A stretch of 64,000 nucleotides of DNA from Cenarchaeum sp. (GCA_965212015.1 OZ243037.1:608001-672000), one strand, 5' to 3'. Shown: positions 20,864-56,609, numbered from the stretch's first letter. Notes: generated from the sequence alone by a model not told the origin. Program-made: numbers and translations.

Positions 20864-20937
20864 GGGTCTATAGCGCAGCCAGGTAGCGCACCGGACTTTT
20901 AATCCGGCTGTCGTGGGTTCGAATCCCACTAGACCCG
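20864..20937 (+). tRNA. tRNA-Lys (UUU), intronless
   Basis: Acceptor GGGTCTA/TAGACCC, anticodon arm CCGGA-CTTTTAA-TCCGG, T arm GTGGG-TTCGAAT-CCCAC. Confidence 0.97.
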
Positions 20938-21159
20938 CTAAGGTTTTGTTGGGGGTTGAAAGGAGCTCGCGGTCTAAAACGCCCGGATCTGCCCGATTTT
21001 GCCATGTTCTGTGACCGGCCCCGAGGCTTATAATTTTATGTAAAAGACCCGCAATCTGGAGGTTGCGAGTCCCCTTTTTTTGGTCATGATATGGCGCGAT
21101 CAGCCGATTTTGATTATATAATAACCAACAGATAAAAACCAAGCCGCCCAAAATAACCT

Positions 21160-37713: not shown

Positions 37714-38157
37714 CTAGTCCGAATCCACCGGGATCTTCCTAAAGTCCAGCATCCCGAACCACTCTAGCTCATCAAAGAACATCCTGATTACGTCCATGAT
37801 CTTTCTTGTACTAGTCAAGGCGTACCAGGGACACCTATCCTCCTTTCTCTTGGCTATTACGGGGACCTCCGCCAGCCACACGTCCTCCTTTATCCGGGTG
37901 ATGTGTATTGCGTCCACCATGCGCGAGTTGCTAAACCCGATTGATTCCCTGTGCTCCCAGAGAAGTTTTTCCGTCTCCCGTAAAGCCTTCTCCCGGTCTA
38001 TGGTGACCATGTCCTTGTTCCCTATGGTCTCAAATTTGCCGTACTTCCAGTATATGATCTTTCTTGGAACGATATTCGCGGTACGGGTCATTATCCTGTA
38101 GAGATCCTCGTGGGGGTGTATGCTGGAGGTGGTAAGGGATCTCTCGGGCTTGTCCAT
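37714..38157 (-). CDS. Hypothetical protein
   Basis: 147-aa ORF with ATG and upstream TTTAAA box. Confidence 0.55.
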   Translation of the reverse strand: MDKPERSLTTSSIHPHEDLYRIMTRTANIVPRKIIYWKYGKFETIGNKDMVTIDREKALRETEKLLWEHRESIGFSNSRMVDAIHITRIKEDVWLAEVPVIAKRKEDRCPWYALTSTRKIMDVIRMFFDELEWFGMLDFRKIPVDSD

Positions 38158-38245
38158 GTACTGTTATTGTGTACAGTGTTTTAAAAATCGTTTGCCCGAA
38201 TATGGGGATCAGATCGCTTATTAGATTCCAAATACACCCAAATGT

Positions 38246-38725
38246 GTGAAAATCTCCTTCAGGGTGTGCGGCAAGCCTCCGAAAAAATCAAGCGGGGGCT
38301 CGATTTGGACCGGCGAGTCAAGATCCGAACAGGTCCTAGATCTGCGCAGATCCGCGGCAGGTGAAAAAAAGAGGATAAACATGGAGTATCCTATGAGGGG
38401 CCCGCTAAGGATCAAACTGACAATACACTCCTCACAGGACATCACGAAAAAGGAGGATACCCACAATTACATCGGGGATCTGGACTCGCTTGTGGCCGGG
38501 GTGTGCGATGCCCTGAGGAAGGCAGATGAGAACGTCACGCCTCACGTGCGGTTCAACCAATACAAGGAAGTCGACCCGAAAAAACCCCTCATAATCGAGG
38601 ACGACTCGAACATAACTGCAATCGAGGCCAGCAAGATCAAGGACACCGAGGAATACTATACGGTGACAGTTGAGGAGATCCGGAATTCTAGCATGTGCGG
38701 ATTCCTGAAAAAAATCCGGGGCTGA
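38246..38725 (+). CDS. RusA-like Holliday junction resolvase family protein
   Basis: GKPPKK...GDLDSL..GVCDAL...IIEDDSNI. Confidence 0.65.
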   Translation: MKISFRVCGKPPKKSSGGSIWTGESRSEQVLDLRRSAAGEKKRINMEYPMRGPLRIKLTIHSSQDITKKEDTHNYIGDLDSLVAGVCDALRKADENVTPHVRFNQYKEVDPKKPLIIEDDSNITAIEASKIKDTEEYYTVTVEEIRNSSMCGFLKKIRG

Positions 38726-38825
38726 CTGGCAGATCATGGTTTCGCCCGATCGATTCATACCTGAACGGCACGCCGTGTGTGAAAACTCCATAACCCATAA
38801 TAATTCCTGAACCGGATGTAACATA

Positions 38826-39149
38826 TTGGTAAAATCCAAGGAATCGATCAAGGAACGATACCGAAAATACCAGAGGGAATATCATAGGAAATATTATCAA
38901 AAGCCGGAGACAAAGGAATGGGTTAGAGAATACAACCAGAGGCCGGAGGTAAAGGAAAGGCTCAGGAAATACAACCAAAGGCCGGAGGTAAAGGAAAAGC
39001 TCAGGAAATACAACCAGAGATCGGAGGTAAAGGAGCGGATCCGAAAATACCATCAGAGGCCGGAGGTAAAGGCGCGTAAAAGATATTTGGCAAAGATGAG
39101 GAGGATCCGTGGGAAATCCAAGACAAAGACCCGTAGAAAATCATACTGA
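38826..39149 (+). CDS. Basic RPEVK-repeat protein (107 aa)
   Basis: 13-aa repeats KYNQRPEVKERLR; TTG start; upstream region duplicated with next gene. Confidence 0.6.
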   Translation: MVKSKESIKERYRKYQREYHRKYYQKPETKEWVREYNQRPEVKERLRKYNQRPEVKEKLRKYNQRSEVKERIRKYHQRPEVKARKRYLAKMRRIRGKSKTKTRRKSY

Positions 39150-39229
39150 CAGAGCAATATGATCAAATCAACGCCCACCTTTCCACGCTCAAAGAAACTC
39201 ATAATAATTCCCAAACAAGACATCACACA

Positions 39230-39763
39230 TTGGCAAAATCCAGGGAATCGGCCAAAAAAAGACTGGAAAGGCTAAGGCGCCAGAGGGAGTATGCCCAGAG
39301 GCCAGAAGTGAAGAAAAGGCTCAGGAAATACCGCCAGAGGCCGGAGGTAAAGAAGCGGATCCAGAAATACCAGAAGGAATACAGCCAGAGGCCGGATGCG
39401 AAAAAGCGGAATCGGGAACGACAGAAAAAATATAGCAAGAGGCCCGAGGTGAAAAAGCGACACGCTGAAAACAGCCTGAAATACAGTCGAAGGCCGGAGG
39501 TAAAGAAGCGGGTCAGGAAACGCAATCAGAGGCCGGAGGTAAAGAAGAGGGTCAGGAAATACCACCAGAGGCCGGAGATGAAGAAACGTAAGGGAGAATA
39601 CATGAAGAAATACAACCAGAGGCCGGAGGTGAGGAAACGCAAAAGGAGATACGCCCAGAGGCTGGAGGTGAAGGAACGTAAGAGAGAATACCAGAAAAAA
39701 TATTATCAAAGGCCGGAGGTAAAGGCGCGTAGAAGACACTCAGCAAAGACCCGTGGGAAATAA
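39230..39763 (+). CDS. Basic RPEVK-repeat protein (177 aa), paralog of previous gene
   Basis: About 10 QRPEVK repeats with 13- or 17-aa spacing. Confidence 0.6.
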   Translation: MAKSRESAKKRLERLRRQREYAQRPEVKKRLRKYRQRPEVKKRIQKYQKEYSQRPDAKKRNRERQKKYSKRPEVKKRHAENSLKYSRRPEVKKRVRKRNQRPEVKKRVRKYHQRPEMKKRKGEYMKKYNQRPEVRKRKRRYAQRLEVKERKREYQKKYYQRPEVKARRRHSAKTRGK

Positions 39764-39789
39764 CTAGTCCGATGATGGTCCTTGGGTAG

Positions 39790-39920
39790 TCGGGCTGGCC
39801 TGCCAGCCCGACGGTGTGGTGGTACGGGGCTCCCGTCAGGGAGCCCGGGGAAAAGACGTTGATGGAGCCGAGTGAGAGTTCGTTGTCGGGGGATTGTGAG
39901 GTAACTGCGAGCTGAAAATC
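39790..39920. repeat. Conserved hairpin module copy 1
   Basis: Hairpins TCGGGCTGGC-CT-GCCAGCCCGA and GGGCTCCC-GTCA-GGGAGCCC; core TTGTGAGGTAACTGCGAG. Confidence 0.9.
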
Positions 39921-39937
39921 TGTTCGGAGAGTTTGAA

Positions 39938-40121
39938 AAAGGTGCAAAAGGGGTCAGTTAGTGACGCAAAATAAGTCACCGGAAAAGGAGTCAAAGGTGC
40001 AAAAGGGGTCAGTTAGTGACGGAAAATAAGTCACCGGAAAAGAAGTCAAAGGCGCTTTAGGGGTCGGAGAATTAGGGGTCGAAAGCGCCTTAGGGGTCGA
40101 CGATAGGCGCTTTAGGGGTCG
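39938..40121. repeat. 55-bp tandem repeat x2 plus TTAGGGGTCG x4
   Basis: GGTGC/GGCGC at 39941, 39996, 40051. Confidence 0.9.
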
Positions 40122-40306
40122 GACATCGGTGGGGCTTGAACAGTTTTGATTTTTGTAATTGGATATCGTGTTGGTGATATGGAAAACCCAAGTGAACCTG
40201 ACTCCGCCTGACACAGGACTGTGATTGCCAAAGTAATACAGGCCGTATGATTCGAGGTCGGTCCGAGCCTACCCATCCTGTCAGGCCGGGACTCTGATTT
40301 GGGCGG

Positions 40307-40443
40307 TCGGGCCGGCTCACGGCCCGACGGTGTGATGGTACAAGGCTCCCAACGGGAGCCTTGGGAGATGACCTTGAAGGCCAGGATGAGGTCGTCATTG
40401 GAGGGTTTGTGAGGTAATGCAAGTCGAAAATCCGCGCGCGGGG
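40307..40443. repeat. Conserved hairpin module copy 2 (divergent)
   Basis: TCGGGCCG...CGGCCCGA; AAGGCTCCC-AAC-GGGAGCCTT; TTTGTGAGGTAATGCAAG. Confidence 0.85.
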
Positions 40444-40463
40444 CGGAATCCCACGATGAAAAT

Positions 40464-40619
40464 ACATGGTTTCCATGGTTTTTTTACATGGATTCCATGT
40501 TCTGGAAAACAGGCAAAACATGGTTTCCGTGGCTTTTTTACATGGATTCCATGTTCTGGAAAACCTGTAAAACATGGTTTCCATGTTTTAAAAAACAGGC
40601 AAAACATGGATTACATGGT
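40464..40619. repeat. 54-bp tandem repeat built of CATGG(T/A)TTCCATG palindromes
   Basis: ACATGGTTTCC at 40464, 40518, 40572. Confidence 0.9.
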
Positions 40620-40823
40620 TTGACGCGGGTCTGAATGATTCCGGCCTCTACATGAATGACAAAAGACGTTAGGAAACAAGCCTCTGCCACTCGTTTATCC
40701 TGACCGTTTCCTGAATAGCTAGATTACATCTGGGGGCTAGGATGATCCTGATACCGTTGGCCAGTGCCAGCCTTGGTGTGTGGTTTGGGCCGGGACTCCG
40801 GCCCGGGATGATACTGGGCAAGA

Positions 40824-40976
40824 GGGCCGGCTCTGCCGGCCCGACGGTGTGGTGGAACGGGGCCTCCCGTCAGGGAGCCCCGGGAAAAAGACATTGAGAT
40901 TACTGAATCGTGGTTCGTCGTTGGGGGGTTTGTGAGGTAACTGCGAGTTGGAAATCCGCGCACGAGGCTTGAAAAA
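40824..40976. repeat. Conserved hairpin module copy 3
   Basis: GGGCCGGC-TCT-GCCGGCCC; CTCCC-GTCA-GGGAG; TTTGTGAGGTAACTGCGAGTTGGAAATCCGCGC. Confidence 0.9.
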
Positions 40977-40977
40977 T

Positions 40978-41135
40978 GGCACTTTTGCAGTCAAAAAAAT
41001 GTAGGCAAAAGCATTTTTGCAGTCAATTTTTGGCACTTTTGCAGTCAGTAAAAAGATGCCAAAAGCATTTTTGCAGTCAAAAAAATGCAGTCAAAAGCAC
41101 TTTTGCGGTCGAAAAACGACCCTTTTGCGGTCGAA
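40978..41135. repeat. 54-bp-period TTTTGCAGTCA repeats, switching to TTTTGCGGTCGA
   Basis: GGCACTTTTGCAGTCA at 40978 and 41032; AAAAGCATTTTTGCAGTCAA at 41007 and 41061. Confidence 0.85.
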
Positions 41136-41233
41136 ATGGATCCGGATGACAGGACGGCTCAAAAGCCAGAGCAGATAACAGAGTCGACCTGCCATCAAGA
41201 TTGAGAGACTCCCCTTGGTGATGTGGGACCTGC

Positions 41234-41551
41234 GGGCCTTGGTGACCTGTACGGGCCTTGGTGACCTGTACGAGTGTGTACGGGCCTTGGTGACCTGTAC
41301 GAGTGTGTACGGGCCTTGGTGACCTGTACGGGCCTTGGTGACCTGTACGAGTGTGTACGGGCCTTGGTGACCTGTACGAGTGTGTACGGGCCTTGGTGAC
41401 CTGTACGAGTGTGTACGGGCCTTGGTGACCTGTACGAGTGTGTACGGGCCTTGGTGACCTGTACGAGTGTGTACGGGCCTTGGTGACCTGTACGAGTGTG
41501 TACGGGCCTTGGTGACCTGTACGAGTGTGTACGGGCCTTGGTGACCTGTAC
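41234..41551. repeat. Perfect 19/29-bp tandem array (12 copies)
   Basis: GGGCCTTGGTGACCTGTAC x12, nine of them followed by GAGTGTGTAC; no unique spacers. Confidence 0.95.
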
Positions 41552-41604
41552 GGACTCGTATCCTGTCCGGGCCGGGACTCCGGCCCGGATGGTTCTGGGC
41601 AAGA

Positions 41605-41750
41605 GGGCCGGCTCTGCCGGCCCGATGGTGTGGAGATGGGGGCTCCCGCCAGGGAGCCCGAGGAAGAGACGTTGAGATTACTGAATGGTTCGTCGTTTGT
41701 GGGTTTGTGAGGTAACTGCGAGTTGGAAATCCGCGCGCGGGGCTTGAAAA
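41605..41750. repeat. Conserved hairpin module copy 4
   Basis: Near-identical to copy 3. Confidence 0.9.
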
Positions 41751-41751
41751 A

Positions 41752-41899
41752 CGACCTCTTTGCGGTCGGTTTTCGACCCTTTTGCGGTCGAAAAAAAGAG
41801 GTCGAAAGCACTTTTGCGGTCGAAAAACGACCCTTTTGCGGTCGAAAAAAAGAGGTCGAAAGCACTTTTGCGGTCGAAAAGCGACCCTTTTGCGGTCGA
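41752..41899. repeat. 54-bp tandem repeat of TTTTGCGGTCGA units
   Basis: CGACCCTTTTGCGGTCGA at 41774, 41828, 41882. Confidence 0.9.
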
Positions 41900-42144
41900 T
41901 ATGGTAGGATGACAGAGCGGCTCAGGAGTCGTAGTAAGTAACACCGAGTCGGCTGGCCATCAAGATTGGAACAGACCCATTGGTCATGTGGCCTGTGGCC
42001 AGCCTTGGTGATCTGTGGGAGTCGTGACTTTTCCAGATGGTTTTGGGTAAGATGACCGGCTCTGGCCGGCTTGGTGTGTGGTCCGGCCCGGATGATTCTA
42101 GGTAAGAGGGCCAGACCTGCCGGCCCGAGATGGTCCTTGGCTAG

Positions 42145-42296
42145 TCGGGCTGGCCTACAGCCCGACGGGATTTGGTATGAGGCTCCCGCCAGGGAGCCTT
42201 GGGGAAAAGACGTTGAGATTACTGAATCGTGGTTCGTCGTTTGTGGGTTTGTGAGGTAACTGCGAACCTGCTGCTACAAACACGCGCGTGCGGGGG
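42145..42296. repeat. Conserved hairpin module copy 5
   Basis: TCGGGCTG...CAGCCCGA; AGGCTCCC-GCCA-GGGAGCCT; TTTGTGAGGTAACTGCGA. Confidence 0.9.
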
Positions 42297-42344
42297 ATAT
42301 TAGGCATATTTTTGCGTACACTCAGTGTACCGTCACGTAGCACC

Positions 42345-42845
42345 CAGTGTACGCAAAAAGGGTACACTTGGTACACTTGGTGTACCCATACGTAGCACTT
42401 GGTGTACCCAGTGTACGCAAAAAGGGTACACTTGGTACACTTGGTGTACCCATACGTAGCACTTGGTGTACCCAGTGTACGCAAAAAGGGTACACTTGGT
42501 ACACTTGGTGTACCCATACGTAGCACTTGGTGTACCCAGTGTACGCAAAAAAATGCATTTAATGCATTCAAAAAATGCATTTAATGCACTCAGTGTACGC
42601 AAAAAAATGCATTTAATGCATTCAAAAAATGCATTTAATGCACTCAGTGTACGCAAAAAAATGCATTTAATGCATTCAAAAAATGCATTTAATGCACTCA
42701 GTGTACGCAAAAAAATGCATTTAATGCATTCAAAAAATGCACTTAATGCACTTTGTGCTACCTCACGTGGCTCTTTGTGCTACCCCCGCATAGCTCTTTG
42801 TGCTCTTTGTGCTACCCCACGTAGCTCTTTGTGTCCTTTTTACCC
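42345..42845. repeat. 64-bp GTAC-rich x3, 54-bp ATGCAT-rich x4, then about 22-bp CTTTGTGCTACC repeats
   Basis: CAGTGTACGCAAAAA at 42345, 42409, 42473, 42537, 42591, 42645, 42699. Confidence 0.92.
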
Positions 42846-43056
42846 CAAGTTGATCTGTGGCAACAGATACAGAAATTAAAGATAAATTAAATCCCGTGCG
42901 GTCACACCAACATCTGTTTTCCCGCGCCCCAAAACCAATAATGATTTCCAAACAGGACTGGCAGAATCCAAGACATCAATCAAGTAAAGGCTCAGACGCC
43001 AGAGGCATGGCGTAAGAGTCATGCTCCTGTAACTTGTGCTCGTTGTACCGCCGACA

Positions 43057-44589
43057 CTAGGATTCCCGCGCGGTTGCCCGGCGCACAAGGAACCTGCCGT
43101 CGGAGAGCTCCGTGTCCACCTCCCACCCCTGGGCAGAATGCTCCAGCAGGCTCTGTTCATCCTCGATAATTCGGCTTTCATATGGGGCATCCGCCTTGGC
43201 AGGTCTTGCCGGTATTTCCTTGGGGACCGTGACAGAATCGTTTCGGATCAGGGAAGTCGGATCCATCCCGTACATCTTGGCCTGCTGCCGCCACAGGTTG
43301 AGTAGCATGTCCTTTTTGTTAGCGCCGTCGGCCTTGAGGTCCGTAGCCAGAAACGTCTGACTCTGCGCGTACGCGCGCCTCATGTCCTCCGTCATCTGCT
43401 CTGTGAGCCTGCCCTTGTTGGTGGTGTATCGAGCCTCCATGTCGCCCTTGTGTCCCATAAAGAATTGTCTGTATGCGTGCGTCATGCACCCGTGGCTTTC
43501 GGCCATGAGCATCTGCGTGTCAAAGTATGCCCTCAGGGCGTACGGGCGGATCTTCATCACGCCCCAGATCGTCCTCCGTATGCTCTCCGATATGGCCGGC
43601 GTGGTCAGAAATAATGTGTCCGATTTCTTACGCTGCCCCCTTTCCTGGTATCCATTGTTGAACGTAATGAGCGGCGAGTCCGGTTCCAGTATATCGCCGT
43701 GCGCGATACGCTGCCGCAGATATCCCAAAAGATACTCACATCCCTGCTTTGTCAGGAACGTAAAGTACTTGTTTTTGGTCTTGCTAAGCTGGGCGCGGAC
43801 GACAATCATTGCCGGCATCTTTTCAAACGACACCCTGTCGCCGTCGATGCGCAGTTCCGGCAGATCCGAGAGTTTCAGCCCGTCACCCTTGTCAGACGTG
43901 CCCATCACCTGGGGGCGGATGCCGGAGAATGCCATCATGCCTACGATGAGCTTTGTGCGCGGGGATCCTGCGCCTAGAATCTGATCAAGTTGCTCCTGCG
44001 TGGGGACCTGCTCGTCCTCTATGCTTACCGCAATGCTGGCGTTTCTCACCTTTATTTTGCGCCTTATCTCGATGTGGTTGTATTCAAGCCACGACTTTAT
44101 CGCCTTTATCATCCCCTCTGTGTAGCCCGGCGCGTAATTCTGTTTTTCCATCCACGAGACGTGATCAAGCAGAATGTTCTCCATGTCCATTGGATTGTCG
44201 CGTCCTATGGTAACCAAGTTTGTAGGAGTCTTGTCAACCCTGTGGCAGAACAGATTGAGTCTGCGCAGCCTTACCTTTGAGTTGAGTATGCTAGAGCGCG
44301 CACAGTTTTCATACCAGCGTCTAACGTCATCATCCTTCAATAGTATAACTGGAGCTTGTGTCGTCACCTGATTCCACCGGATGTTATCAAAACGCGTTCC
44401 CCTATTTTTCCTTTTTGTTGTACGATTTTTTTCGTTAGGAATTATATTAGAGGAGTTTTCATGTTGTGTAATAACCGCGCGCTTTTTTTCCGGTTCCCTG
44501 TCAGGGCGCCGTGAGTTTGCACTCTTTATTTGTAGGCGAGGCTTGCAGTCGGCTTTTGAATTTACAGATTTTGTTTTCTGTTTTTTCAT
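43057..44589 (-). CDS. Tyrosine recombinase/integrase 1
   Basis: SGIRP, RPYALRAYFDT, FMGHKG, ARY catalytic residues; probable ATG at 44589 next to the att repeat. Confidence 0.88.
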   Translation of the reverse strand: MKKQKTKSVNSKADCKPRLQIKSANSRRPDREPEKKRAVITQHENSSNIIPNEKNRTTKRKNRGTRFDNIRWNQVTTQAPVILLKDDDVRRWYENCARSSILNSKVRLRRLNLFCHRVDKTPTNLVTIGRDNPMDMENILLDHVSWMEKQNYAPGYTEGMIKAIKSWLEYNHIEIRRKIKVRNASIAVSIEDEQVPTQEQLDQILGAGSPRTKLIVGMMAFSGIRPQVMGTSDKGDGLKLSDLPELRIDGDRVSFEKMPAMIVVRAQLSKTKNKYFTFLTKQGCEYLLGYLRQRIAHGDILEPDSPLITFNNGYQERGQRKKSDTLFLTTPAISESIRRTIWGVMKIRPYALRAYFDTQMLMAESHGCMTHAYRQFFMGHKGDMEARYTTNKGRLTEQMTEDMRRAYAQSQTFLATDLKADGANKKDMLLNLWRQQAKMYGMDPTSLIRNDSVTVPKEIPARPAKADAPYESRIIEDEQSLLEHSAQGWEVDTELSDGRFLVRRATARES

Positions 44590-44599
44590 ATTGAAAGCG

Positions 44600-44613
44600 C
44601 CACTAGACCCGCT
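44600..44613 (+). other. att site (copy of tRNA-Lys 3' end)
   Basis: CCACTAGACCCGCT identical to 20926-20939. Confidence 0.8.
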
Positions 44614-44703
44614 TCCACTGTGGGTTCGGGTCTTTCCCTGGCAAAATGCCCACAAACCGGTATCCGCGGGTGATTAACGCCCCCGCTTTTGCTGTATCGG
44701 CAA

Positions 44704-45966
44704 CTATTCTGTTTGGCCCGTCTTGGCGCTCATCAGCACCTCTAGTACCCGGTCAAGCTGTTCTGGCGTTGCCTTTTCCATGACGTTCTGTATGTGGTGT
44801 CTCTGCTCCAGTGTGGGGTCTATCTTGCTCTGATCCAGATACTCCTCGGATCGCATGAATCCCTCGCGCATCTCGGCTGTCAGGACCTCTGGCAGTATGC
44901 TCTTGTTTGTCGTGTACCTTGACTCCATGCTGCCCTTGTGTCCCATGAAAAAGACCCTAAAGTCGTGGGCTATCTTTCCCTTGGACTCTGCAATTAGCAG
45001 CTGCGTGTCAAAGTACGCCCTTAGAACGTATGGCCTCCATGTGAATCTGGGCCTGAACGTCCTTCTTACCAGATCACTTATTTGCTGCGTGGGCAGAAAC
45101 GCCTTTCTTGTATTGACGCCCCTGTGCGTCTTGTAGATATAGTCGGGCGCTACAATTGGCGCATTATCGTGCAGTGATTCCCCGTGAACCAGCCTGTCGT
45201 TCAGGTATGCCACGATGTGGCTCGTTGCGGACTGTGTCGAGAATGTAAAGTACTGGTGGCGTGCCTTTGAGAGCTCGCGCCGTACTATGATTCTGTTTGG
45301 AATTCTAACGCACTTTGCCTTTCCCTGATGGATTACCAGATCCGGCAGATCCTTCATTTGCAGTCCGTCCGTTCCGTTATGGTTTCCAATGACCTGTGGT
45401 CTGAGGCCCGACTTTGCCATCAGCGATATTATCACCGACTCGCGCAGGCCGGCCCTGCTGTATATCTCGGTCATCTCTTGCCCCTCCGGGACGCGTTCGT
45501 TTTGAAGCGTAGGGGTATAGTTTGTGGACGTCACCTTGATCTTTCTTCGTATCTCCACATCAAAGTGTCTCAGCCACGACTTTACCGTCTTGATCTGCTC
45601 CTCAATGTATCCCGGGGAATAATTCTTGGACTCCATCATGGTGATGTGATCCTCAAGCAAGTCCGTTGCAGTTCTCAGATCCCTAGTTGCCAGATCCGCC
45701 AGCTGTATCGGTGTCATCTGGTGAATCTCGCAGAACCGTCCCAGTCTCCTGAGACGCCCATCTGCTGTGATGGGGCTTCCGCGCGCCAGATTATCATGCC
45801 ATCTTTTGATGTCCGTGTTGGCCAACAGCCTTGATTTTTTTGTCTGTTTGGCAGTATCTTTTGCGTATGGTTTTGTTTTTTCCATATCTGTCAGCCTCTC
45901 GGTTACATTCTCGGTATGGTATGGTTTTGCTATTTGACTTTTGAGCGCGTTTTCCATTGTTATCAT
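44704..45966 (-). CDS. Tyrosine recombinase/integrase 2
   Basis: SGLRP, RPYVLRAYFDT, FMGHKG, SRY; homologous to integrase 1. Confidence 0.9.
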   Translation of the reverse strand: MITMENALKSQIAKPYHTENVTERLTDMEKTKPYAKDTAKQTKKSRLLANTDIKRWHDNLARGSPITADGRLRRLGRFCEIHQMTPIQLADLATRDLRTATDLLEDHITMMESKNYSPGYIEEQIKTVKSWLRHFDVEIRRKIKVTSTNYTPTLQNERVPEGQEMTEIYSRAGLRESVIISLMAKSGLRPQVIGNHNGTDGLQMKDLPDLVIHQGKAKCVRIPNRIIVRRELSKARHQYFTFSTQSATSHIVAYLNDRLVHGESLHDNAPIVAPDYIYKTHRGVNTRKAFLPTQQISDLVRRTFRPRFTWRPYVLRAYFDTQLLIAESKGKIAHDFRVFFMGHKGSMESRYTTNKSILPEVLTAEMREGFMRSEEYLDQSKIDPTLEQRHHIQNVMEKATPEQLDRVLEVLMSAKTGQTE

Positions 45967-46024
45967 GTTATCTGATACAAAGCTTTATTTAAAGATTTAC
46001 CATGTAGCATGATACAGGCTGATC

Positions 46025-46312
46025 ATGGGCATATTTATAAAAAAAATCCACGGGGCGGAATACCTGTATTTTCTGGCAGGGGATTCCCAGTATTTCCTGG
46101 GAAGAAAGGACGATCTGGAAAACCTGAACATTCAGAATCTGCGCAAGGCTGTGCGGATTGCAGACAGGAACTTTGATAGGATTTTTGTAAAATACATCCG
46201 GGATCTGCTGAAAAATGTCAGGTACATGCCCGATGATGAGAGGGCCCGGTACCTGTCCGCGCGGATTGCAAACTTGGATTCTGCGTTAAGACAGCTCAAA
46301 AATACGCGATAA
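46025..46312 (+). CDS. Small putative DNA-binding protein (possible excisionase)
   Basis: KKIHGAEYLYF...YFLGR beta-hairpin motif; divergent from integrase 2. Confidence 0.55.
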   Translation: MGIFIKKIHGAEYLYFLAGDSQYFLGRKDDLENLNIQNLRKAVRIADRNFDRIFVKYIRDLLKNVRYMPDDERARYLSARIANLDSALRQLKNTR

Positions 46313-46334
46313 TCATGCGATTTTTTGCAAAAAA

Positions 46335-46496
46335 TTATGACTCGTTGCCGGCCTTGAGGTAGAGCCTGTCTCCTTCCCTCTCAAAGACGATCACATCACC
46401 CTTTTCGAACCTGCAGCTGTTTCGGACCCGTTTCGGGATGGTAATCTGGTACTTGTATGATACCACGGTTGTGCCTAGGATTTCCTTGTTATTCAT
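46335..46496 (-). CDS. AbrB/MazE/SpoVT-family DNA-binding protein (53 aa)
   Basis: Manual translation ...VSYKYQITIPKRVRNSCRFEKGDVIVFEREGDRLYLK. Confidence 0.8.
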   Translation of the reverse strand: MNNKEILGTTVVSYKYQITIPKRVRNSCRFEKGDVIVFEREGDRLYLKAGNES

Positions 46497-46587
46497 GCCT
46501 TACTTGTAGGAATCGTAGGAAAAACACATAAAGTATCCCCAAGAATGTAAAGATCACTTGAAAAGTAAGGCAAAAAAGGCATCTCAG

Positions 46588-48474
46588 ATGGCCAAATGTA
46601 CTACAATGCTAAAGTGGTATTTTCCACCAACAGGTGGTGGAGTAACTCAGGGATTTAATGATGGTTCACAAGAATTCTTCCGATCTAATGCATGGGAGCA
46701 GACCATAAGAGAGATAATTCAGAATTCACTTGATGCTGTAGATGATCGAAGAGACGGGCCAGTAAAAATAAACATCTCTGAAATAACGATACCTGCATCA
46801 GAGATAGGAGCCACTGATCTTGCTGGCCACATAAGCAAGGCTTTGGAACGCACTAGAAAACAAGAATCCACCACAGGGAGTAAATTTTACGAAAATGCAT
46901 TGAAGGTTTTAAATCAAAATGAGATCAAAATGCTTGCAATAACTGATACTAACACTACAGGTTTAGTGGATGAAAAATGGGATGCGCTGATATATGATGA
47001 AGGTACATCAAGTAAAGGTGGTATAAATGCAGCAGGAGGAAGTTTTGGCATTGGAAAAAATGCACCATATGTGGTTTCAGATTTAAAAACTGTATGTTAT
47101 TCCACACGATATCTAGGCAAGGGAAGAATTGAAAAGTTTATTGCTCGATGCAAGATTTCTGCACATGAGAATCCCGATGAATCTTCTAAAGAAATGCTAC
47201 AACACATAGGATTTGGAACTAAAACAAAATTAGCAAAAAATATTCGTCCTTTACCAACAGAAGGAAGTGACATTCATCAACTATTTCGTCTTGATGAATA
47301 TGGAAGTGGAATATTTATTATGGGATTTAATCCACAACTAAAAAATTGGATCAAAGTGGCCAAAAAATCTATAGCACATAATTTTTTTGTTGCAATACAT
47401 GAAAAGAAATTAGAAATTTATATAAATTCTGATCCGATAAACTATGAAACATTAGATGGTATATTTGAGGATGATCGTAAAAAAGAACCTACTCGTCACT
47501 ATTATCATATCATCCGTGATGATATTAAGAAAGAAATTGTAGAAGGAGATCTGGGAAAATTTACAGTACAAATAAATATTGATGATGAAGATGCACCAAA
47601 CCAAATTGCATATATAAACCGAAGAGGAATGATGGTAACTGACAAGCGTATTTTCGATGAAAATCCATTTTATACGGCAGTTGGAAAAGGTTGGGCCAAA
47701 TATGCAGTAGTAATTATGTCACATGATGATGCAACAGATATGAAAATACGTATGATGGAGCCGCCTAACCATCAATCAATCGAATACAAGCGCATCAATG
47801 ATCATAAAAAACGAGATTCTATGGAACGACAACTTCGTGTCATAAAAAATAAAATTACTGATATTATTAACAACGCAATTTCCGACAGTAATCATGAACA
47901 TGACATAAATCTATCAGAACTTGCAGACATATTGCCTTTTCCTGATGATTCAGGAAAAGAAGGTATTGAACAAAGTGAAAAAGATCAGTCTCTAGATCAT
48001 CATACTATAGAGTCTGGCACATCATCTCATATCGTAGATGATGATGGATTAGATTCAGGTAAAAAGTTAGGTGGGACCTCAGATACACATGGAAAGAATC
48101 ATAAATCTATTTCTGGTCGCAAAATAAGCAGTAAAGGAACACCAATTTTGCATCGTCAGCGAATTGTGCGCAGCAAGGATATACTCCGTGTTGCATTTAC
48201 ATCACGTCAAAATAATGGAAAACCAGTGTGCTTTGGCATCAAACCTGTAGGTGAAGAAAGAAAAAATGAAATCATGATTCCAATAACTTCGGCCCGTGTG
48301 GAAACACCATCGAATTTTACCATTAAAATGAATAACAATCGTATAACCATGACTCCAAAATATGATGAACGGGTTGTAATGGATCTAAAAATACCTCAAA
48401 CCAAGTCATATACAGGATATGAGATCATTGAAATAGTACAAAACAAAAAACCCTCAAAAGGTAATAAAAAATGA
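46588..48474 (+). CDS. GHKL-type ATPase, uncharacterised family
   Basis: REIIQNSLDA, DTNTTGL, GGSFGIGK. Confidence 0.75.
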   Translation: MAKCTTMLKWYFPPTGGGVTQGFNDGSQEFFRSNAWEQTIREIIQNSLDAVDDRRDGPVKINISEITIPASEIGATDLAGHISKALERTRKQESTTGSKFYENALKVLNQNEIKMLAITDTNTTGLVDEKWDALIYDEGTSSKGGINAAGGSFGIGKNAPYVVSDLKTVCYSTRYLGKGRIEKFIARCKISAHENPDESSKEMLQHIGFGTKTKLAKNIRPLPTEGSDIHQLFRLDEYGSGIFIMGFNPQLKNWIKVAKKSIAHNFFVAIHEKKLEIYINSDPINYETLDGIFEDDRKKEPTRHYYHIIRDDIKKEIVEGDLGKFTVQINIDDEDAPNQIAYINRRGMMVTDKRIFDENPFYTAVGKGWAKYAVVIMSHDDATDMKIRMMEPPNHQSIEYKRINDHKKRDSMERQLRVIKNKITDIINNAISDSNHEHDINLSELADILPFPDDSGKEGIEQSEKDQSLDHHTIESGTSSHIVDDDGLDSGKKLGGTSDTHGKNHKSISGRKISSKGTPILHRQRIVRSKDILRVAFTSRQNNGKPVCFGIKPVGEERKNEIMIPITSARVETPSNFTIKMNNNRITMTPKYDERVVMDLKIPQTKSYTGYEIIEIVQNKKPSKGNKK

Positions 48475-49307
48475 GTCATACGAACTTCTTGCTACCACAT
48501 CCAATAATTAAACCTGGAGGATTTGACTACAATGAAAATTGTCACTTTGACATAGAGATAAAACAGGCCACGACACTTGATGGAAATATCCACATTGAGA
48601 TATCATGTGATCTGTCCAGTTTTACTATAAATGATCTCATAAAGAAAGAAAAAGCAAAATTTTTTATTACTTTAAAATGTGTTAAAACCCATCAAAGAAT
48701 CACACATAGCTTTACAGAAACTTCCATGGTTTGGGATATTCCGATGTCTAACTGTGTCGATAAAATAAACATAACGCCATATGTGGCAACAACTGAGGAA
48801 ATACCAGCATTTTACTCCAAAGAACATGATGATGAAATTCAACAAATGATTCCTGATGGCGTAGATCTTCCGACAGGTGCCATTTTGGCAGTAGGAAAAT
48901 CACACGAAATCACGATTGATGCGATAGAAAAGATCCAAGCTGCCATCAAGATAATCCAAAATAAGGAATTGGAAGTAGGAACTTACGCCATAGACACCAG
49001 TGGCGATTATCTAGACATTCAAATGCATCCTAAAACACAAAACAGCATACGTAATATACACAACCAATCAGTAGAACTTTTGTATCCATCAATTTACCTG
49101 ACTGCCATCGAACAAGCCATACGTGATATGGAAAATTATAAAGATCGCAAATGGGCACAAGCTTTGCACAAAACTCTAGAAAAACACAATATTGAGATTG
49201 ATTATGATAAATTAAAGGAAGAAGCAAATAAGCATGCCCAGACAATACTGAACAAACCATTGGATCGCATCATACAATGGCACAATCGAGAGAATGAATA
49301 TGATTGA
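48471..49307 (+). CDS. Hypothetical protein, translationally coupled
   Basis: 4-bp overlap with ATPase; N-terminal LPHPII. Confidence 0.75.
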   Translation: MSHTNFLLPHPIIKPGGFDYNENCHFDIEIKQATTLDGNIHIEISCDLSSFTINDLIKKEKAKFFITLKCVKTHQRITHSFTETSMVWDIPMSNCVDKINITPYVATTEEIPAFYSKEHDDEIQQMIPDGVDLPTGAILAVGKSHEITIDAIEKIQAAIKIIQNKELEVGTYAIDTSGDYLDIQMHPKTQNSIRNIHNQSVELLYPSIYLTAIEQAIRDMENYKDRKWAQALHKTLEKHNIEIDYDKLKEEANKHAQTILNKPLDRIIQWHNRENEYD

Positions 49308-50919
49308 AAGAGAACCCCTTTACAGATTTACCCATGAAGCATTTGAAATGTTATTCAAGAACTTTGAAAAACATCTTGAACATTACAAGAATCCTGATGC
49401 AGATTTTATCAAACTATTAACAGAGAATGGAATCAATAATTACAAAGAACCAATAATCGCGCATATCATTAATCCAATCAAACTTGAATTGACAGAGGGC
49501 AAACCATCCCATCTAGCAGACATTCAGGCACTCGATTTTTATAATTCCTTTGAAGGCATGACGCCTAGACTTGCGTCAGATCCACGTGTACTGGCATATC
49601 TGAATCATTTTTATTTTCACAAGTATGGCATTGCTCGCTGGCCGATATCTGCAAGCACAAAACCAGAACATATGCGTAGACATTGGCTTACGCGTAGCAC
49701 AGAAAATACTCACATATGGAAATCAAACATTTCGGGCAGAACCTGGTGGATTGCACATATGGCCATCAAGGCAGCAGAGTCTTCGGCCGGCACATTTGAT
49801 GCAAAGCAAGCATTGAAAAAATTTACAGAAGCTCCAGAATATTACCATCGCACCATGGAATATGCCATACTCAAAAATCATACGCTTATGGCAGAATTCA
49901 TCAGAGCATTACACAGGGAGGCAGAGGGTATAAACCGTGATGGATACATAGCCATGGCAAAGGAATTAAACCTGGAGGCTGGTGCAAGGCTAATTGATTC
50001 GCTGGACAGACAATACCTGCGTAAACTAGTACAGCGTGCAGCAGATCGTCAGATGTGCAATCCAAAATCTGTTACAAATCGCAAATATATTCATAATGTG
50101 AAAAAATTCAAAGTGTTGAGTTTGGGAGCTGGAGCACAGTCTACCGTGTTGGCGCTCATGGCAGAAGAGGGATGGAATGGACTTGAAAAACCAGATCTAG
50201 CTATATTTGCAGATACTCAATGGGAACCACCGAATGTATACGAGCACCTAGATTGGTTAGAAAAACAGCTATCGTATAAGGTAATTCGAGTATCTGCAGG
50301 AAACATACGTGAGAACATACTAAACGGTGTCAATTCAGATGGAGACAAATTTATGGACATACCGGCATTTTTAGTAAATCCTGATGGAAGTAAATCCGTG
50401 GCCCGCAGACAATGCACTACGCATTATAAAATAAGACCCATACACAAGGAGCTTAGAAAACACCTCGGCATACCAACCGGTCGACGTGCTCCAAAAGATA
50501 TTCAGGTAGAAATGTGGCTGGGTATTAGTGCAGATGAATCAAATAGAATTAAACCTAGCAGAGATGAATGGATCGACAATCGATATCCACTTATTGAAAA
50601 GGACATGACCCGGGCCAACATATACAATTGGTTTAGTGAGAGGTATCCGGATCGTCGTTTGCCTCGCAGTGCATGCGTAGGATGTCCTTACCACAACAAC
50701 ATGGAGTGGAAATGGATCAAAGAAAACGATCCGGATTCATTTGAGGAAGCAGTCAATGTTGACTGGTCGCTTCGTAATGTTCAAAAGACACGTGGTACAC
50801 TCAAAGGAGATGCGTACTTGCATCACACGCGCAAACAGTTAAACAAAGTGGATTTTAGCAAGACAGAAAATTATGATGACTATATGGCGAGCGAATGTGA
50901 GGGACTCTGTGGTGTCTGA
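49294..50919 (+). CDS. DUF6339-like domain fused to PP-loop/PAPS-reductase-like Cys-rich domain
   Basis: N-terminal TPRLASDPRVLAYL.H...RW...NISGRTWW; C-terminal LSLGAGAQST, ADTQWE, QCT..YK, GISADE, SACVGCPY, ECEGLCG. Confidence 0.7.
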   Translation: MNMIEREPLYRFTHEAFEMLFKNFEKHLEHYKNPDADFIKLLTENGINNYKEPIIAHIINPIKLELTEGKPSHLADIQALDFYNSFEGMTPRLASDPRVLAYLNHFYFHKYGIARWPISASTKPEHMRRHWLTRSTENTHIWKSNISGRTWWIAHMAIKAAESSAGTFDAKQALKKFTEAPEYYHRTMEYAILKNHTLMAEFIRALHREAEGINRDGYIAMAKELNLEAGARLIDSLDRQYLRKLVQRAADRQMCNPKSVTNRKYIHNVKKFKVLSLGAGAQSTVLALMAEEGWNGLEKPDLAIFADTQWEPPNVYEHLDWLEKQLSYKVIRVSAGNIRENILNGVNSDGDKFMDIPAFLVNPDGSKSVARRQCTTHYKIRPIHKELRKHLGIPTGRRAPKDIQVEMWLGISADESNRIKPSRDEWIDNRYPLIEKDMTRANIYNWFSERYPDRRLPRSACVGCPYHNNMEWKWIKENDPDSFEEAVNVDWSLRNVQKTRGTLKGDAYLHHTRKQLNKVDFSKTENYDDYMASECEGLCGV

Positions 50920-51241
50920 AATCGTATCACAACTAATGTTGAAAAAAATTCCTTTCGACTATGATTTTCACAATCATTTAAACAATTCTGGTGGATTGTA
51001 TTGCTTTTGGTTGCGCAATAGTTGTCTTTATGTGGGCATGAGTGAGGATCTAAAGAGGCGTATTGCACAACATAGCCATAAGGAAGATAATCCGGAATTG
51101 ATCAAATATTTCAGAACATGTCCAGATGAAATCGAAATATCCATAGTGTATCTAGATCTTACTGCAAACAAGCTCAGAAACATCGAATCAAGAGCCATAC
51201 TAGAATTACATCCAGTGGCCAATAGGCAAGGAATTTCTTAG
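50912..51241 (+). CDS. GIY-YIG nuclease family protein
   Basis: GLYCFW...LYVGMS..LKRRIAQH...IE..AI...HP..N. Confidence 0.8.
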   Translation: MSEIVSQLMLKKIPFDYDFHNHLNNSGGLYCFWLRNSCLYVGMSEDLKRRIAQHSHKEDNPELIKYFRTCPDEIEISIVYLDLTANKLRNIESRAILELHPVANRQGIS

Positions 51242-51289
51242 GTATGATCATGCCATTTGAATATCTTTTACTTTCCATGGAGATATGTC

Positions 51290-52549
51290 ATGACTAGCTC
51301 ATATCCTGCACTACGAGGAAAATTTGGAAAGACAGATTATTTTTTGACTGCCATGCCAGTAGGAGAATTGATCAGTCGTGTCACATTCCCAATAGATCTT
51401 CCAGGCTGGGAGAACCGCTCCATAGAGGAGAGATTTCAGCGAAAGATCGATATAAGGAGAATTAGACGTGACATTGCTCCATATTTTGCAAATGATGAGA
51501 ATAGATTTTCTGGTGCACTGGTACTGGCAGTACTAAATTCTGATAAAATGATACTAGAATCATTACAAGATATTGCAGGAGTCAGTAATAATATCCCAAA
51601 ATTGTATAATAGTGTTATCGGTGATATGGGATTCCTGATAATGTCGGGAGATGAAGTTTTTGTTCCACTTGACGGACAGCATAGGGCTAAGGCATTCAAA
51701 CTTGCAATAGAAGGCTATAAGGATAGTAGTAAGGTAGCCCCATTAATACGGCCTAATCCAGATCTGGCAAAGGACAAAGTCGCTGTGATATTGGTTCGTT
51801 TTGACGACTTGATGTCCAGATATATATTCAACAAGATAAACCGATACGCAAAGCCTACCACCAAGGCTGACAAATTGATTACTGACGATGATAATGCCGT
51901 AGCAGTAATAACAAGGCAGATGATAAGTGACGGTGTCATTCCGGAACGTCTAGTGAACATAGACACAAACTCACTTAGCAAAACAATGCACGAATTTACA
52001 ACACTTTCTACGTTTTATGATGCCAACATGTACCTTCTGTCTGGATTACAGGTTGCCAGTATAGCAAATCCAGAAAAAATGTCCAAACCTGAAAGGGAGA
52101 TGCGATTAACAGAAGTAAGCGCAGAATGGAAGCGTTTGATATCTGGAATTGGTTTGTGGAAAAAAGCCCTCAAGGATCCATCCATAAAAGGGGATGACAT
52201 ACGCAAAAAGATCCGCAAGGAATACTTGCTAGGTAAACCCATCGGTCAGCTCTCGCTGGTAGGCGGATACGCCTTTACATGTCAGAGGCACAGGAATGAG
52301 GTGGATAGAGATCTCCTAATAAGACGACTAGATAAGATAGATTGGAGGGTGCGCACAAAGATGTGGTCAGGAGTGCTGATCCGTCAAAACGGCAGGATCA
52401 TGTCGGGAAGACCGACAGCAAAAAATGCCATCAAGTTCATAGCTTATCTCATAGGTGCTGAGCTGACAAAACTAGAGAAGGACAGCATTTTAGGATGGAT
52501 TTATGGCGACAGATGGAAAAAGAATGTTCTTCCAGAACCGATCAAATGA
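51290..52549 (+). CDS. dndB: DndB/DGQHR domain protein
   Basis: FQRKID..RI..IAPY, RFSGAL, LDGQHR, IFNKINRYAK. Confidence 0.82.
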   Translation: MTSSYPALRGKFGKTDYFLTAMPVGELISRVTFPIDLPGWENRSIEERFQRKIDIRRIRRDIAPYFANDENRFSGALVLAVLNSDKMILESLQDIAGVSNNIPKLYNSVIGDMGFLIMSGDEVFVPLDGQHRAKAFKLAIEGYKDSSKVAPLIRPNPDLAKDKVAVILVRFDDLMSRYIFNKINRYAKPTTKADKLITDDDNAVAVITRQMISDGVIPERLVNIDTNSLSKTMHEFTTLSTFYDANMYLLSGLQVASIANPEKMSKPEREMRLTEVSAEWKRLISGIGLWKKALKDPSIKGDDIRKKIRKEYLLGKPIGQLSLVGGYAFTCQRHRNEVDRDLLIRRLDKIDWRVRTKMWSGVLIRQNGRIMSGRPTAKNAIKFIAYLIGAELTKLEKDSILGWIYGDRWKKNVLPEPIK

Positions 52550-52615
52550 TCGAAATACAAGTATTAAAATTCATAAGAATTTTATTGTACTGAAGAATCG
52601 TCAACAATTGTACCG

Positions 52616-54037: not shown

Positions 54038-54259
54038 ATTAATGCATATGATTTACTTGAATTTAAATATTGCAAAGATGAATGTTGGGATTTGATCATT
54101 TTTATATATGGGGTGGTCAGCCATCATGATCCATAGCTTTTTCAGTTTTCTTGTATGGACACGCAATTAAATTGATTTATCCTGATAAAAATCAACCATC
54201 CTATAACACAAAGCAATTAGTGTTAAAATATTACAGCATAGGATACAGAATCCATGTGT

Positions 54260-54649
54260 TTATCTGATTTTTACAACACCTGTCTTTTCTGAATAGAAAT
54301 AAAACTCAATATCATCAAGCCATCTGTCAAATTCACGTATATACAGATCTGCCATTCTTCTATCCTCTCCAATTACAAATAATTTTTTCCATGGTTTGTT
54401 ATCGTATTTTTCCAATAAACCCATAAGCCAAACATATTCATTCAAAACAGAAAATTTTGCAGAAGGTCTATTTCCTCCACTTGTCATAGTATAATGTTTG
54501 ATATCTCCGACGATTTTGTGTTCTAGATTTATTAGATCAAAATTTTTGAATTTACCATTTATTGCAATTTTAACACTTGATAATTGTACATTCATGAGTT
54601 TTTCCATGGCTTTTCTTGCCTTGCTCTCGTATTCTTGCCAAGAATCCAT
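54260..54649 (-). CDS. Putative PD-(D/E)xK-fold protein
   Basis: QEYE...NFDL...VGDIKHY. Confidence 0.55.
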   Translation of the reverse strand: MDSWQEYESKARKAMEKLMNVQLSSVKIAINGKFKNFDLINLEHKIVGDIKHYTMTSGGNRPSAKFSVLNEYVWLMGLLEKYDNKPWKKLFVIGEDRRMADLYIREFDRWLDDIEFYFYSEKTGVVKIR

Positions 54650-54729
54650 CCTAAAATATTATGATCTAGATTAGTTATAAATGATCAGATTTGCAAAATA
54701 TGGTGTTTTTGATTTTTATCTAATATCTA

Positions 54730-54900: not shown

Positions 54901-54953
54901 GCCTGATTCCTATTTGTCTGGTTTTTATATATACTTGTTGGTGAAAAATCACG

Positions 54954-55973: not shown

Positions 55974-56090
55974 TAGCAGGATTAATAATAGTCGCTTATA
56001 AAATGTTTAGAAAAAAAATGGCAGGAATATTGTAAGTGTTCCGATCGCTTTCTGCCGTCATTACCGGCCCGCGGTATAAAATGCCCGGAT

Positions 56091-56528: not shown

Positions 56529-56609
56529 GTAACTATACTGCATCGAACTAGTATATTTGGATTTATGTAAAAATCCGCCCAAATTAGGGCTGTCAGGCCC
56601 GCCAAATCC

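Follow-up and report, generated by a model that had tools for sequence, protein, structure and literature searches.

ParM/ParR/parC is an actin-type partition locus in which ParR is a ribbon-helix-helix protein, and in Streptomyces the FtsK/TraG-like pump TraB itself binds a direct-repeat cis locus, clt, near its own gene. Type II partition systems are described as combining an adaptor, an array of short repeats and an actin-fold ATPase, as in AlfA/AlfB/parN and AlpC/AlpA/alpS (bioRxiv 10.1101/190744, PMC5539076). Mimics of the origin of transfer (oriT) have been described for the pWBG749 family, where non-self-transmissible staphylococcal plasmids copy the cis sites of a helper and subtypes of the SmpO binding site set specificity (PMC8136818). 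In Thaumarchaeota, integrated elements are reported to enter tRNA genes by means of tyrosine recombinases, and homologues of VirD4/TraG mark an integrative-conjugative class among them (PMC6563490). Here we analyse an array of five structured, non-coding modules at the end of a 23.7-kb element integrated in a tRNA-Lys gene of Cenarchaeum sp. The window that was analysed comprises 64,000 nucleotides (G000:C1:608001-672000) of a 1.76-Mb single-contig genome, and positions are counted within it unless they are given as genomic. We suggest, with a confidence somewhat short of even, that the array is a set of cis-acting docking sites, akin to centromeres or transfer handles, which would let the island use or titrate the adaptors of sister elements.

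The array spans 39.7-42.9 kb and holds five conserved modules of about 135-190 nt each (M1 to M5; Table 1). All five lie where a first-pass annotation of the window had placed them, and score 107-144 bits with cmsearch against a covariance model built from module copies, which was used in the module searches together with an nhmmer profile of the five window copies. Their mean column identity is 78%, and their start-to-start distances are 517, 515, 781 and 542 bp, in agreement with the spacing of about 515-780 bp given earlier (measured, 515-781 bp). The earlier module length of 130-150 bp was an underestimate, given an additional palindrome upstream of M3 (approximately 40787-40806) and of M4 (approximately 41569-41588), both read by eye. 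M5 belongs to a subtype whose tail is common to genome copies at 1134 and 1163.9 kb. We agree with the first pass that no credible open reading frame (ORF) crosses the array: none of the eight longest ORFs within it reaches a Pfam cut-off, the sole listed match being DUF3106 at 17.7 bits against a cut-off of 24.3. We also agree that this is not a CRISPR array, an identity that was rejected because the repeats are 133-142 nt at 78% identity where a CRISPR array has near-identical ones of about 25-40 nt, the would-be spacers are themselves tandem repeats, and the window scan found no Cas family. Modules are present in five other Nitrosopumilaceae genomes as well (G175, G176, G177, G178 and G104, with whole-genome counts of 5, 7, 3, 6 and 6), including a six-module array at 1741.9-1744.6 kb of G178.

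Pair statistics were taken from 38 module copies, from 24 sources and six genomes, aligned to the covariance model. In this alignment, which as a model-fitted one leans towards structure and whose copies are related to one another, 88.2% of 969 cells fall in standard pairs against 74.6% in shuffles, double-sided changes occur in 21 of the 27 pairs, and none of 500 shuffles attains any of the five measures; sliding the partner column by 1-3 positions lowers pairing to 29-51% (maximum 51.4%). Hairpin A shows double changes in 9 of 10 pairs and hairpin B in 10 of 10 (19/20 together), and the stem P3, which closes the conserved loop, is weaker, with double changes in 2 of 7 pairs and one pair that never varies. 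In low-G+C genomes the stem sequences are entirely different, with the loop of hairpin B and a 15-nt core retained. The compensatory stem changes quoted in the first pass are present among the aligned copies, and its proposal of selection on structure is upheld: given the covariation of the hairpins, the module is under selection for its fold. It is a new motif, absent from Rfam. A cmscan of 38500-44000 at E up to 1 returned 14 microRNA-like matches far below the gathering threshold, all of them in repeat cassettes and none on a module.

Such a fold need not act as DNA. We considered that the modules may be genes for a new structured RNA of about 150 nt, transcribed from the plus strand in the direction of the small AbrB-fold gene (abrB) that follows units elsewhere in the genome; the iterons would then be operators or terminators of this RNA or control the abrB promoter, and the array would be five RNA paralogues. 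Besides the strong hairpin covariation, this reading can appeal to P3, where one pair is U.G in 37 of 38 copies and another alternates between U.G (15), U.A (10) and C.G (9), and where G.U cells outnumber A.C cells 69 to 6 (35 to 19 in hairpins A and B). It can also appeal to the 15-nt loop, nearly invariant across genomes in which module G+C runs from about 37 to 74%, and to a consensus fold energy of -20.4 kcal/mol on the plus strand as against -12.2 on the minus strand; with no Rfam match, the RNA would found a new family. However, single-sequence z-scores do not separate the strands, being no better on the plus strand (-1.6 to -3.8) than on the minus (-2.1 to -3.9), and hairpins A and B are near-perfect palindromes with few wobble pairs, as would equally be expected of DNA hairpins. 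By eye there is neither a conserved archaeal promoter upstream nor a consistent T-run downstream, and a search of the genome for complements of the conserved loop of at least 10 nt returned no convincing target, barring one word within the array at 1163 kb. A search of sequencing runs listed no RNA run that contains the stretch. We regard an RNA gene as rather unlikely. The folded form is probably the plus strand, and the module could act either as single-stranded RNA or as DNA.

What follows each module is variable. Tandem Repeats Finder returned 32 rows within 38000-45000, and blocks with periods of 54, 55, 64, 32 or 22 nt, several of them at 96-100% match, lie 3' of every module, as the first pass had claimed. 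Its further claim that each cassette differs from the rest is true in part: there are at least nine iteron types across the window cassettes, with M3 and M4 having one iteron type in common, M1 being followed by two types and M5 by three. The palindrome ACATGG(A/T)TTCCATG occurs four times in the genome, always within cassette 2. Except for scattered single copies, the iteron words of the window are confined, in its own genome, to this array and to the one at 1163 kb. Two of the tandem repeats match at 100%, one of 29 nt in 7.9 copies (41325-41552) and one of 64 nt in 3.3 copies (42342-42551), which implies very recent expansion. Rather than payload, the GT-rich repeat at 41233-41552 is an element conserved ahead of modules and belongs to the next unit; clusters of the same word precede modules at genome 324.7-325.0, 756.2-756.4 and 1162.6-1163.4 kb. 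The layout of a constant scaffold with a variable, putatively protein-binding payload is upheld. We note that the integrase-proximal cassette (42751-42833; also at genome 1164576) contains a word of 8-10 nt complementary to the conserved loop of the module, possibly by chance.

Elsewhere, the same units come with genes. The order in sister units is GT-rich repeats, module, iterons and a small AbrB-fold gene; at 324 and 756 kb of the Cenarchaeum genome, a TTTTATG box comes after the iterons, and the small ORF some 25-30 nt beyond it. An AbrB-family ORF lies 148-335 nt downstream in 13 of the 16 module copies found outside integrase-adjacent arrays, a count that sets aside L129, L136, L134 and L101, where an IS-like (insertion sequence-like) ORF, further cassettes or an integrase gene stand instead of abrB. 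By tblastn, the Cenarchaeum genome has two AbrB-family genes, at 324 kb (genome 323916-324293) and 756 kb (756913-757239), and one distant match at 327 kb. The two match Pfam MazE_antitoxin below its cut-off (E 7e-5 and 2e-4), and a profile of seven AbrB-type proteins matches solved AbrB/MazE/SpoVT chains, with 7d2n_E at E 4.8e-4 and five more at 0.018-0.033. The N-terminal domain of these proteins is variable (28-42% identity to the first sequence) and their C-terminal ..LEKLR(I/M)K tail is conserved. Convergent on abrB is a TraG/VirD4-like gene of about 1040 aa (TrwB_AAD_bind at 23.7-31.1 bits against a cut-off of 20.5, over about 70-100 residues, with P-loop matches), and this gene is preceded by one for an actin-fold ATPase of 276-282 aa (MreB_Mbl at 37-53 bits against a cut-off of 27; ALP_N above its cut-off in 3 of 4). 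The order actin-like to TraG-like, convergent with abrB, recurs at four loci in three genomes, and the actin-like proteins are 60-64% identical across them. At 318-320 kb a Pfam-positive integrase gene stands ahead of the pair. In G175, genes for a type IV prepilin peptidase-like protein (L141:975-1703:+) and an SDH-type ClpP-like protease (L141:2349-3266:+) lie upstream of the actin-like gene; a similar SDH-type protease is encoded in the right-hand island of the window (54954-55973:-).

The first-pass annotation had offered a menu of roles, and these sister units, beside AbrB-fold, actin-like and TraG-like genes, favour its segregation or decoy branch over a replication origin as such. An origin would here be of the iteron type, or a single-strand origin for rolling-circle replication or for a transferred strand; the AbrB-fold protein would initiate replication or regulate copy number, and the extra units would be incompatibility or copy-control arrays. 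Rolling-circle and iteron plasmids do combine hairpins, iterons and a small autoregulator-like gene, and the unit recalls that layout; it is also orientation-specific, with a positive GC skew of +0.17 to +0.20 over 38-42 kb, and its iteron copies are phased at 22, 32 or 54 nt. Yet no Rep, MCM, primase or HUH nuclease was recognised in Pfam scans beside the annotated units of the window and of four complete loci. The module, rich in G+C and with stable hairpins, does not qualify as an unwinding element, the elements sit integrated beside integrases and in that state require no origin, and we know of no initiator of the AbrB fold. We therefore hold a replication origin to be distinctly improbable.

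The type of AbrB protein and the type of iteron go together. One clade of AbrB proteins stands behind repeats of the TGCA-N5-TGCA type in Cenarchaeum, G176 and G177, and a second behind repeats of the GCRCYTTYGG type in Cenarchaeum and G104. Over 13 units, identity of the AbrB N-terminal domains correlates with shared repeated 7-mers (Mantel rho 0.52; 0/2000 permutations as high), and repeated 7-mers are common to 11 of 11 between-genome pairs whose AbrB identity is 50% or more, as against 10 of 52 other pairs. The window cassettes can in part be matched to these operators. Cassette 1b agrees with the operator of the 324-kb abrB gene at 15 of 18 positions, where 0.02 matches are expected, and four sites of cassette 5b match the operator of the 756-kb abrB gene at 13 of 16; at that level the latter operator has nine matches in the window against 1.26 expected, a number reached in none of 100 shuffles. 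Cassettes also recur between arrays: cassette 1a and the last cassette of G175 have 14 repeated 9-mers in common, cassette 4 and a further G175 cassette have five, and the G175 and G178 arrays share up to 29 with each other and up to 14 with the window. Cassette types are common to genomes of very different G+C although the module stems wholly differ. A cassette type that is linked to abrB in G175 stands as an orphan in the array of G178, and one integrase-adjacent cassette of G104 repeats an iteron word that, 1.4 Mb off in that genome, precedes an abrB gene.

We propose the following scheme. Each unit would be a cis-acting DNA handle made of a multi-hairpin module and specificity repeats, the iterons being putative binding sites of the small AbrB-fold adaptor, which may also regulate its own promoter. 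The conserved tail of the adaptor would couple iteron-bound DNA to the actin-like and TraG-like ATPase pair, and this coupling would serve segregation, cell-to-cell transfer of the excised element, or both. As for the module, we would guess that it is the part common to all handles on which the conserved machinery acts, recognised as a single plus strand. An island with handles of its own and no more, such as that in the window, might be served in trans by the adaptors of sister elements, and hence be a hitcher; and adaptor binding by five handles with at least nine iteron types could also titrate adaptors, with incompatibility or exclusion as the outcome.

Several observations weigh against this scheme. 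The correlation of AbrB proteins with iterons is an association and not binding, as linked descent alone could yield it. Most window cassette types are without an abrB-linked counterpart in the genomes examined, their words occurring in arrays only, and there are more cassette types than abrB genes (one AbrB-family gene in G175 and two in G178, against three and six array units); another binder of these orphan types, or no binder, is hence possible. The TraG-like assignment comes from short, low-scoring domain matches, with PF12696 below its cut-off and NCBIfam VirD4-like at 26.6 bits against 250, and the actin-fold protein has no particular likeness to ParM: among solved structures it matches MreB, Arp2 and actin best (E about 5e-5), and NCBIfam ParM gives only E 0.004. 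P3 and its G.U bias point to a single-stranded plus form, which fits an RNA gene equally well. Modules are also scarce: with stricter filters, the model found them in one of 150 other genomes of the family, and they are present at 4 of 78 loci retrieved through the neighbouring integrase-like gene. Finally, docking leaves the need for the module unexplained, and known centromeres and transfer sites have no counterpart to it.

The last 14 nt of the tRNA-Lys(ttt) gene, the only tRNA gene of the window, occur exactly twice in the 1.76-Mb genome, at window positions 20926 and 44600, and these direct repeats set the boundaries of the element (20926-44613); a longer word, the 26 nt at the 3' end of the tRNA gene, has no second copy in the window. 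G+C, at about 55% in the flanks, drops to 28-52% over 20-58 kb, a stretch that takes in the element and a neighbouring island. The cargo consists mostly of defence-type genes as judged from Pfam domains. Between 21160 and 32223 are a class-V aminotransferase (cysteine desulfurase), DUF4007, a KAP-type NTPase of 1114 aa, PAPS reductase and GmrSD, with an HNH protein among them, a gene set that we take to resemble the SspABCD-SspE DNA phosphorothioation defence system. The element also encodes a Schlafen/AlbA protein, a PLD-like protein and a helicase accompanied by an HATPase protein. A scan of 28 window ORFs revealed no abrB, actin-like or traG-like gene, and tblastn found no abrB in the window either; the element has handles without adaptor or ATPase genes, and would thus depend on the adaptors and ATPases of sister elements.

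That nothing mobile lies nearby is not supported: two tyrosine-recombinase-like genes lie directly 3' of the array. Both show the R...H..R...H...Y pattern. The first carries a conserved R..RPYxLRAYF..H..R..GHKGxMExRY block, and its true start is probably an internal Met just inside the right attachment repeat. A 19-sequence profile of the window integrase-like protein matches a Pfam-positive integrase of G178 with a probability of 97.9% (E 6.4e-13). Matches to NCBIfam XerA are weak (E 5e-5 and 23 bits for the first gene, against a cut-off of 220), neither ORF has a Pfam match, and against solved structures the profile returned spurious TALE-repeat matches only. We also ruled out that the two ORFs, of 532 and 420 aa, are halves of a TraG-like protein, as they show no similarity to it. 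Kin of the integrase-like gene are from Nitrosopumilaceae, which bears out the earlier guess as to the host. Arrays that lack abrB and converge on an integrase-like gene are found in the window (five modules), at 1162.7-1164 kb of the same genome (three), in G175 (three), in G178 (six, with a different, Pfam-positive integrase) and at L101 of G104 (one module with three cassette types).

An array abutting a tyrosine-recombinase-like gene could suggest an integron-like platform, in which the neighbouring recombinase captures non-coding cassettes at the folded module, an analogue of attC. The structure of the module is conserved beyond its sequence, cassette order varies between genomes, and strain variants (below) differ by entire units. 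The locus nonetheless departs from an integron. The recombinase gene is convergent with the array rather than divergent from an attI-like site, and has its own attachment site on its far side; the module has three to four stems where attC has a single palindrome; the cassettes, which in integrons bear ORFs, are without credible ones; junctions of variants fall at several module positions and not at a single crossover point; and modules also stand singly next to abrB and traG-like genes, at loci apart from this integrase family. We rejected membership among integrons, and consider an integron-like mechanism very improbable indeed.

Within the Cenarchaeum genome, the covariance model gives 15 module matches at E <= 0.001 and the five-copy profile 17 places. 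Beyond the window there is an array of three (1162.7-1164.0 kb), single full copies are at 324.5, 756.5 and 1134.2 kb, and partial or truncated modules lie at 947604-947730 (-), 159470-159616, 1108175-1108313 and 1144019-1144159; the truncated copies may be remnants of decayed integrated elements. The DNA after the partial copy at 947 kb reads by eye like two tRNA genes on the opposite strand. Copies of the tRNA-Lys(ctt) 3' end, 15 and 17 nt long, are met again at 1136-1167 kb, which suggests tandem elements, each ending in a module with cassettes, then an integrase or transposase gene, then an attachment site. Searches further afield gave little: a BLAST-type DNA search of 60 relatives found the module in none, the core word of the module had three matches in viral contigs, none of them confirmed by the model, and five of its 63 matches in metagenome contigs were weak model matches of 17-20 bits. 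Full copies share context and orientation, with GT repeats, module, iterons and then abrB or integrase. A match to a miniature inverted-repeat transposable element (MITE) or to an IS end, raised in the first pass as a possible refutation, was accordingly rejected, there being a constant context and orientation and no linked transposase (terminal repeats were not formally searched for); the sole transposase linkage is at 1135 kb, where one IS has taken the place of the integrase.

Logan contigs of runs X1 and X2, and of X3 and X4 from a second study, were compared with the array. Those of X1 and X2 run with zero differences from M1 to M2 (39833-40509), from M2 to M3 (40535-40816) and from M4 to M5 (41870-42158); X1 is possibly the sample of the assembly itself, so that this agreement is not independent proof of the assembly. 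The X3 and X4 contigs fuse modules and omit cassettes (40308 to 41605, 41588 to 42134, and 39764/41255), with breakpoints at differing module positions; these joints were seen at a likeness threshold of 90%, and some flanks are short. Such module-to-module joints suggest that related strains have shorter or different arrays, which vary by whole units. In G176 (L041:10518-12918) a decayed TraG-like remnant separates two complete tandem units, each with module, iterons and abrB; this arrangement may be an intermediate between single units and arrays without abrB.

The array could then be functionless debris, left by homologous recombination between modules of successive related integrated elements with deletion of abrB and the rest. 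In its favour are the scattered breakpoints of the X3 and X4 joints, the partial modules found at 42032-42136 and in four further places of the genome, the tandem integration seen at a single tRNA gene (1136-1167 kb), and the tandem units of G176, which still retain abrB. Against it, iteron words are letter-identical between genomes whose module stems have fully diverged, repeat copies are 96-100% identical and so have expanded recently, and integrase-adjacent arrays without abrB recur in four genomes with partly the same cassettes in differing order. We think debris quite improbable; were it true, the array would still record repeated recombination among integrated elements.

Returning to the docking-site reading, a stronger form of it can be entertained. 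The element may be a hitcher defence island whose ordered array mimics the cis sites of several helpers, to be moved by whichever helper is present or to exclude helpers by titration; the module would then be a new strand-specific class of folded recognition site, and the trio of adaptor and ATPases a new archaeal system of DNA handling. We consider this fuller proposal possible but doubtful. The maintenance and movement of archaeal genomic islands, defence islands included, are largely obscure, and the locus offers a testable cis/trans system in which a set of AbrB-fold proteins changes with the iterons, a tail and an ATPase pair are conserved, and some islands have sites only. If the docking-site reading holds, it would point to a machine for DNA segregation or transfer in the Nitrosopumilaceae, a group without genetic tools.

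Table 1. Array, cassettes and landmarks of the integrated element (window positions)
Feature	Position	Strand	Remarks
tRNA-Lys(ttt)	20864..20939	+	ARAGORN; last 14 nt (20926-20939) are the left attachment repeat
Module M1	39783..39920	+	Hairpin A, hairpin B, stem P3 closing conserved loop; cmsearch 143.8 bits
Cassettes 1a and 1b	39938..40125	+	1a: 55-nt period, AAAGGGGTCAG-type iteron; 1b: 4 x TTAGGGGTCG
Module M2	40300..40432	+	cmsearch 107.1 bits
Cassette 2	40464..40617	+	Period 54/32, palindromic ACATGG(A/T)TTCCATG
Module M3 with upstream palindrome	40787..40956	+	cmsearch 133.8 bits for 40815-40956; palindrome by eye
Cassette 3	40977..41136	+	TTTGCAGTCA iterons, then TTTGCGGTCG iterons; 32/54-nt units
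GT-rich 19/29-nt tandem repeat	41233..41552	+	GGCCTTGGTGACC type; 7.9 copies, 100% match
Module M4 with upstream palindrome	41569..41731	+	cmsearch 122.5 bits for 41596-41731
Cassette 4	41759..41899	+	54-nt period, inverted CGACC...GGTCG iterons
Two degenerate partial module starts	42032..42136	+	Direct-repeat family D6, 66% and 74% identity; nhmmer partial match 42082-42128
Module M5	42138..42275	+	cmsearch 130.4 bits; integrase-proximal subtype
Cassettes 5a, 5b and 5c	42316..42833	+	5a: 64-nt period GTACAC..GTGTAC; 5b: 54-nt period ATGCATTTAATGCA; 5c: CTTTGTGCTA type, about 23-31 nt
Tyrosine-recombinase-like gene 1	43057..44655	-	Convergent with array, 0.2 kb away
Right attachment repeat	44600..44613	+	14-nt copy of tRNA-Lys 3' end
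Tyrosine-recombinase-like gene 2	44704..45966	-	35%-identity paralogue; part of next island rightward

Two genes lie just upstream of the array. The first is a RusA-like (Holliday-junction resolvase-like) ORF (38246..38725, +; PHROG 140 at E 5.7e-6, Pfam RusA below its cut-off at E 0.011). The second is a Lys/Arg-rich gene (38826..39763, +), split in two frames (38826-39149 and 39230-39763), whose stop is 24 nt 5' of hairpin A of M1. Its product has about 11 or more repeats of 13 aa (QRPEVKKR.RKY type) and an N-terminal ..KKRLERLRRQREY motif similar to the tail that the AbrB-fold proteins conserve at their C-terminus; at L009:7042-8367:- and L012:5736-6545:+ paralogues precede modules, and neither the gene nor its paralogues match any family in Pfam, PHROG or NCBIfam. 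To the right of the element, a second low-G+C island (44614-58000) begins with the paralogous integrase-like gene and continues with DndB, DUF6339 with PAPS-reductase, GIY-YIG, HNH and the SDH-type protease; an ORF at 48471-49307 has a match to MCM_N that is not significant (E 0.035). No further copy of the attachment word was found for this island.

The sister loci resemble actin-type partition systems in that an adaptor gene lies directly downstream of phased repeats and near a gene for an actin-fold ATPase, and in that the type of adaptor tracks the type of repeat. They differ in the adaptor, which is of the AbrB/SpoVT fold and not a ribbon-helix-helix protein like ParR; in the ATPase, which is not specifically ParM-like; in the TraG-like ATPase gene of about 1040 aa between the adaptor and actin-like genes; and in the covarying multi-hairpin module and GT-rich repeats that precede the iterons. 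With their other adaptor fold, their non-ParM-like ATPase, no relaxase and a module without known counterpart, the sister loci belong partly with partition loci and oriT regions. The window locus belongs with neither, because the genes are missing: its sites stand alone, five in a row, without partition genes. Streptomyces TraB/clt is alike in that a TraG-like pump and a short repeat cis locus are close together, and differs in that there is no adaptor gene, hairpin module or actin-like partner there.

The element shares with the integrated elements of Thaumarchaeota its integration in a tRNA gene by a tyrosine recombinase. The passages searched in that survey contain no description of the module, the cassettes or the actin-like gene; the terms "tandem repeat" and "AbrB" do not appear in them and "iteron" occurs in the references only, and the supplementary tables may list related elements (PMC6563490). 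A literature search on actin-like, AbrB, ParM and tandem-repeat loci in archaea returned nothing on this system.

If the island is indeed a hitcher, its closest analogue would be the oriT mimics of the pWBG749 family. The host here is archaeal and there is no recognisable nick site or relaxase, Pfam scans of the proteins of the window and of the sister loci having found no relaxase family; to our knowledge, no archaeal relaxase or transfer origin has been described. Transfer of these elements is only putative, and their sites come in ordered arrays with as many as six units. Should the analogy be right, helper-dependent elements with mimic sites would extend to the archaea.

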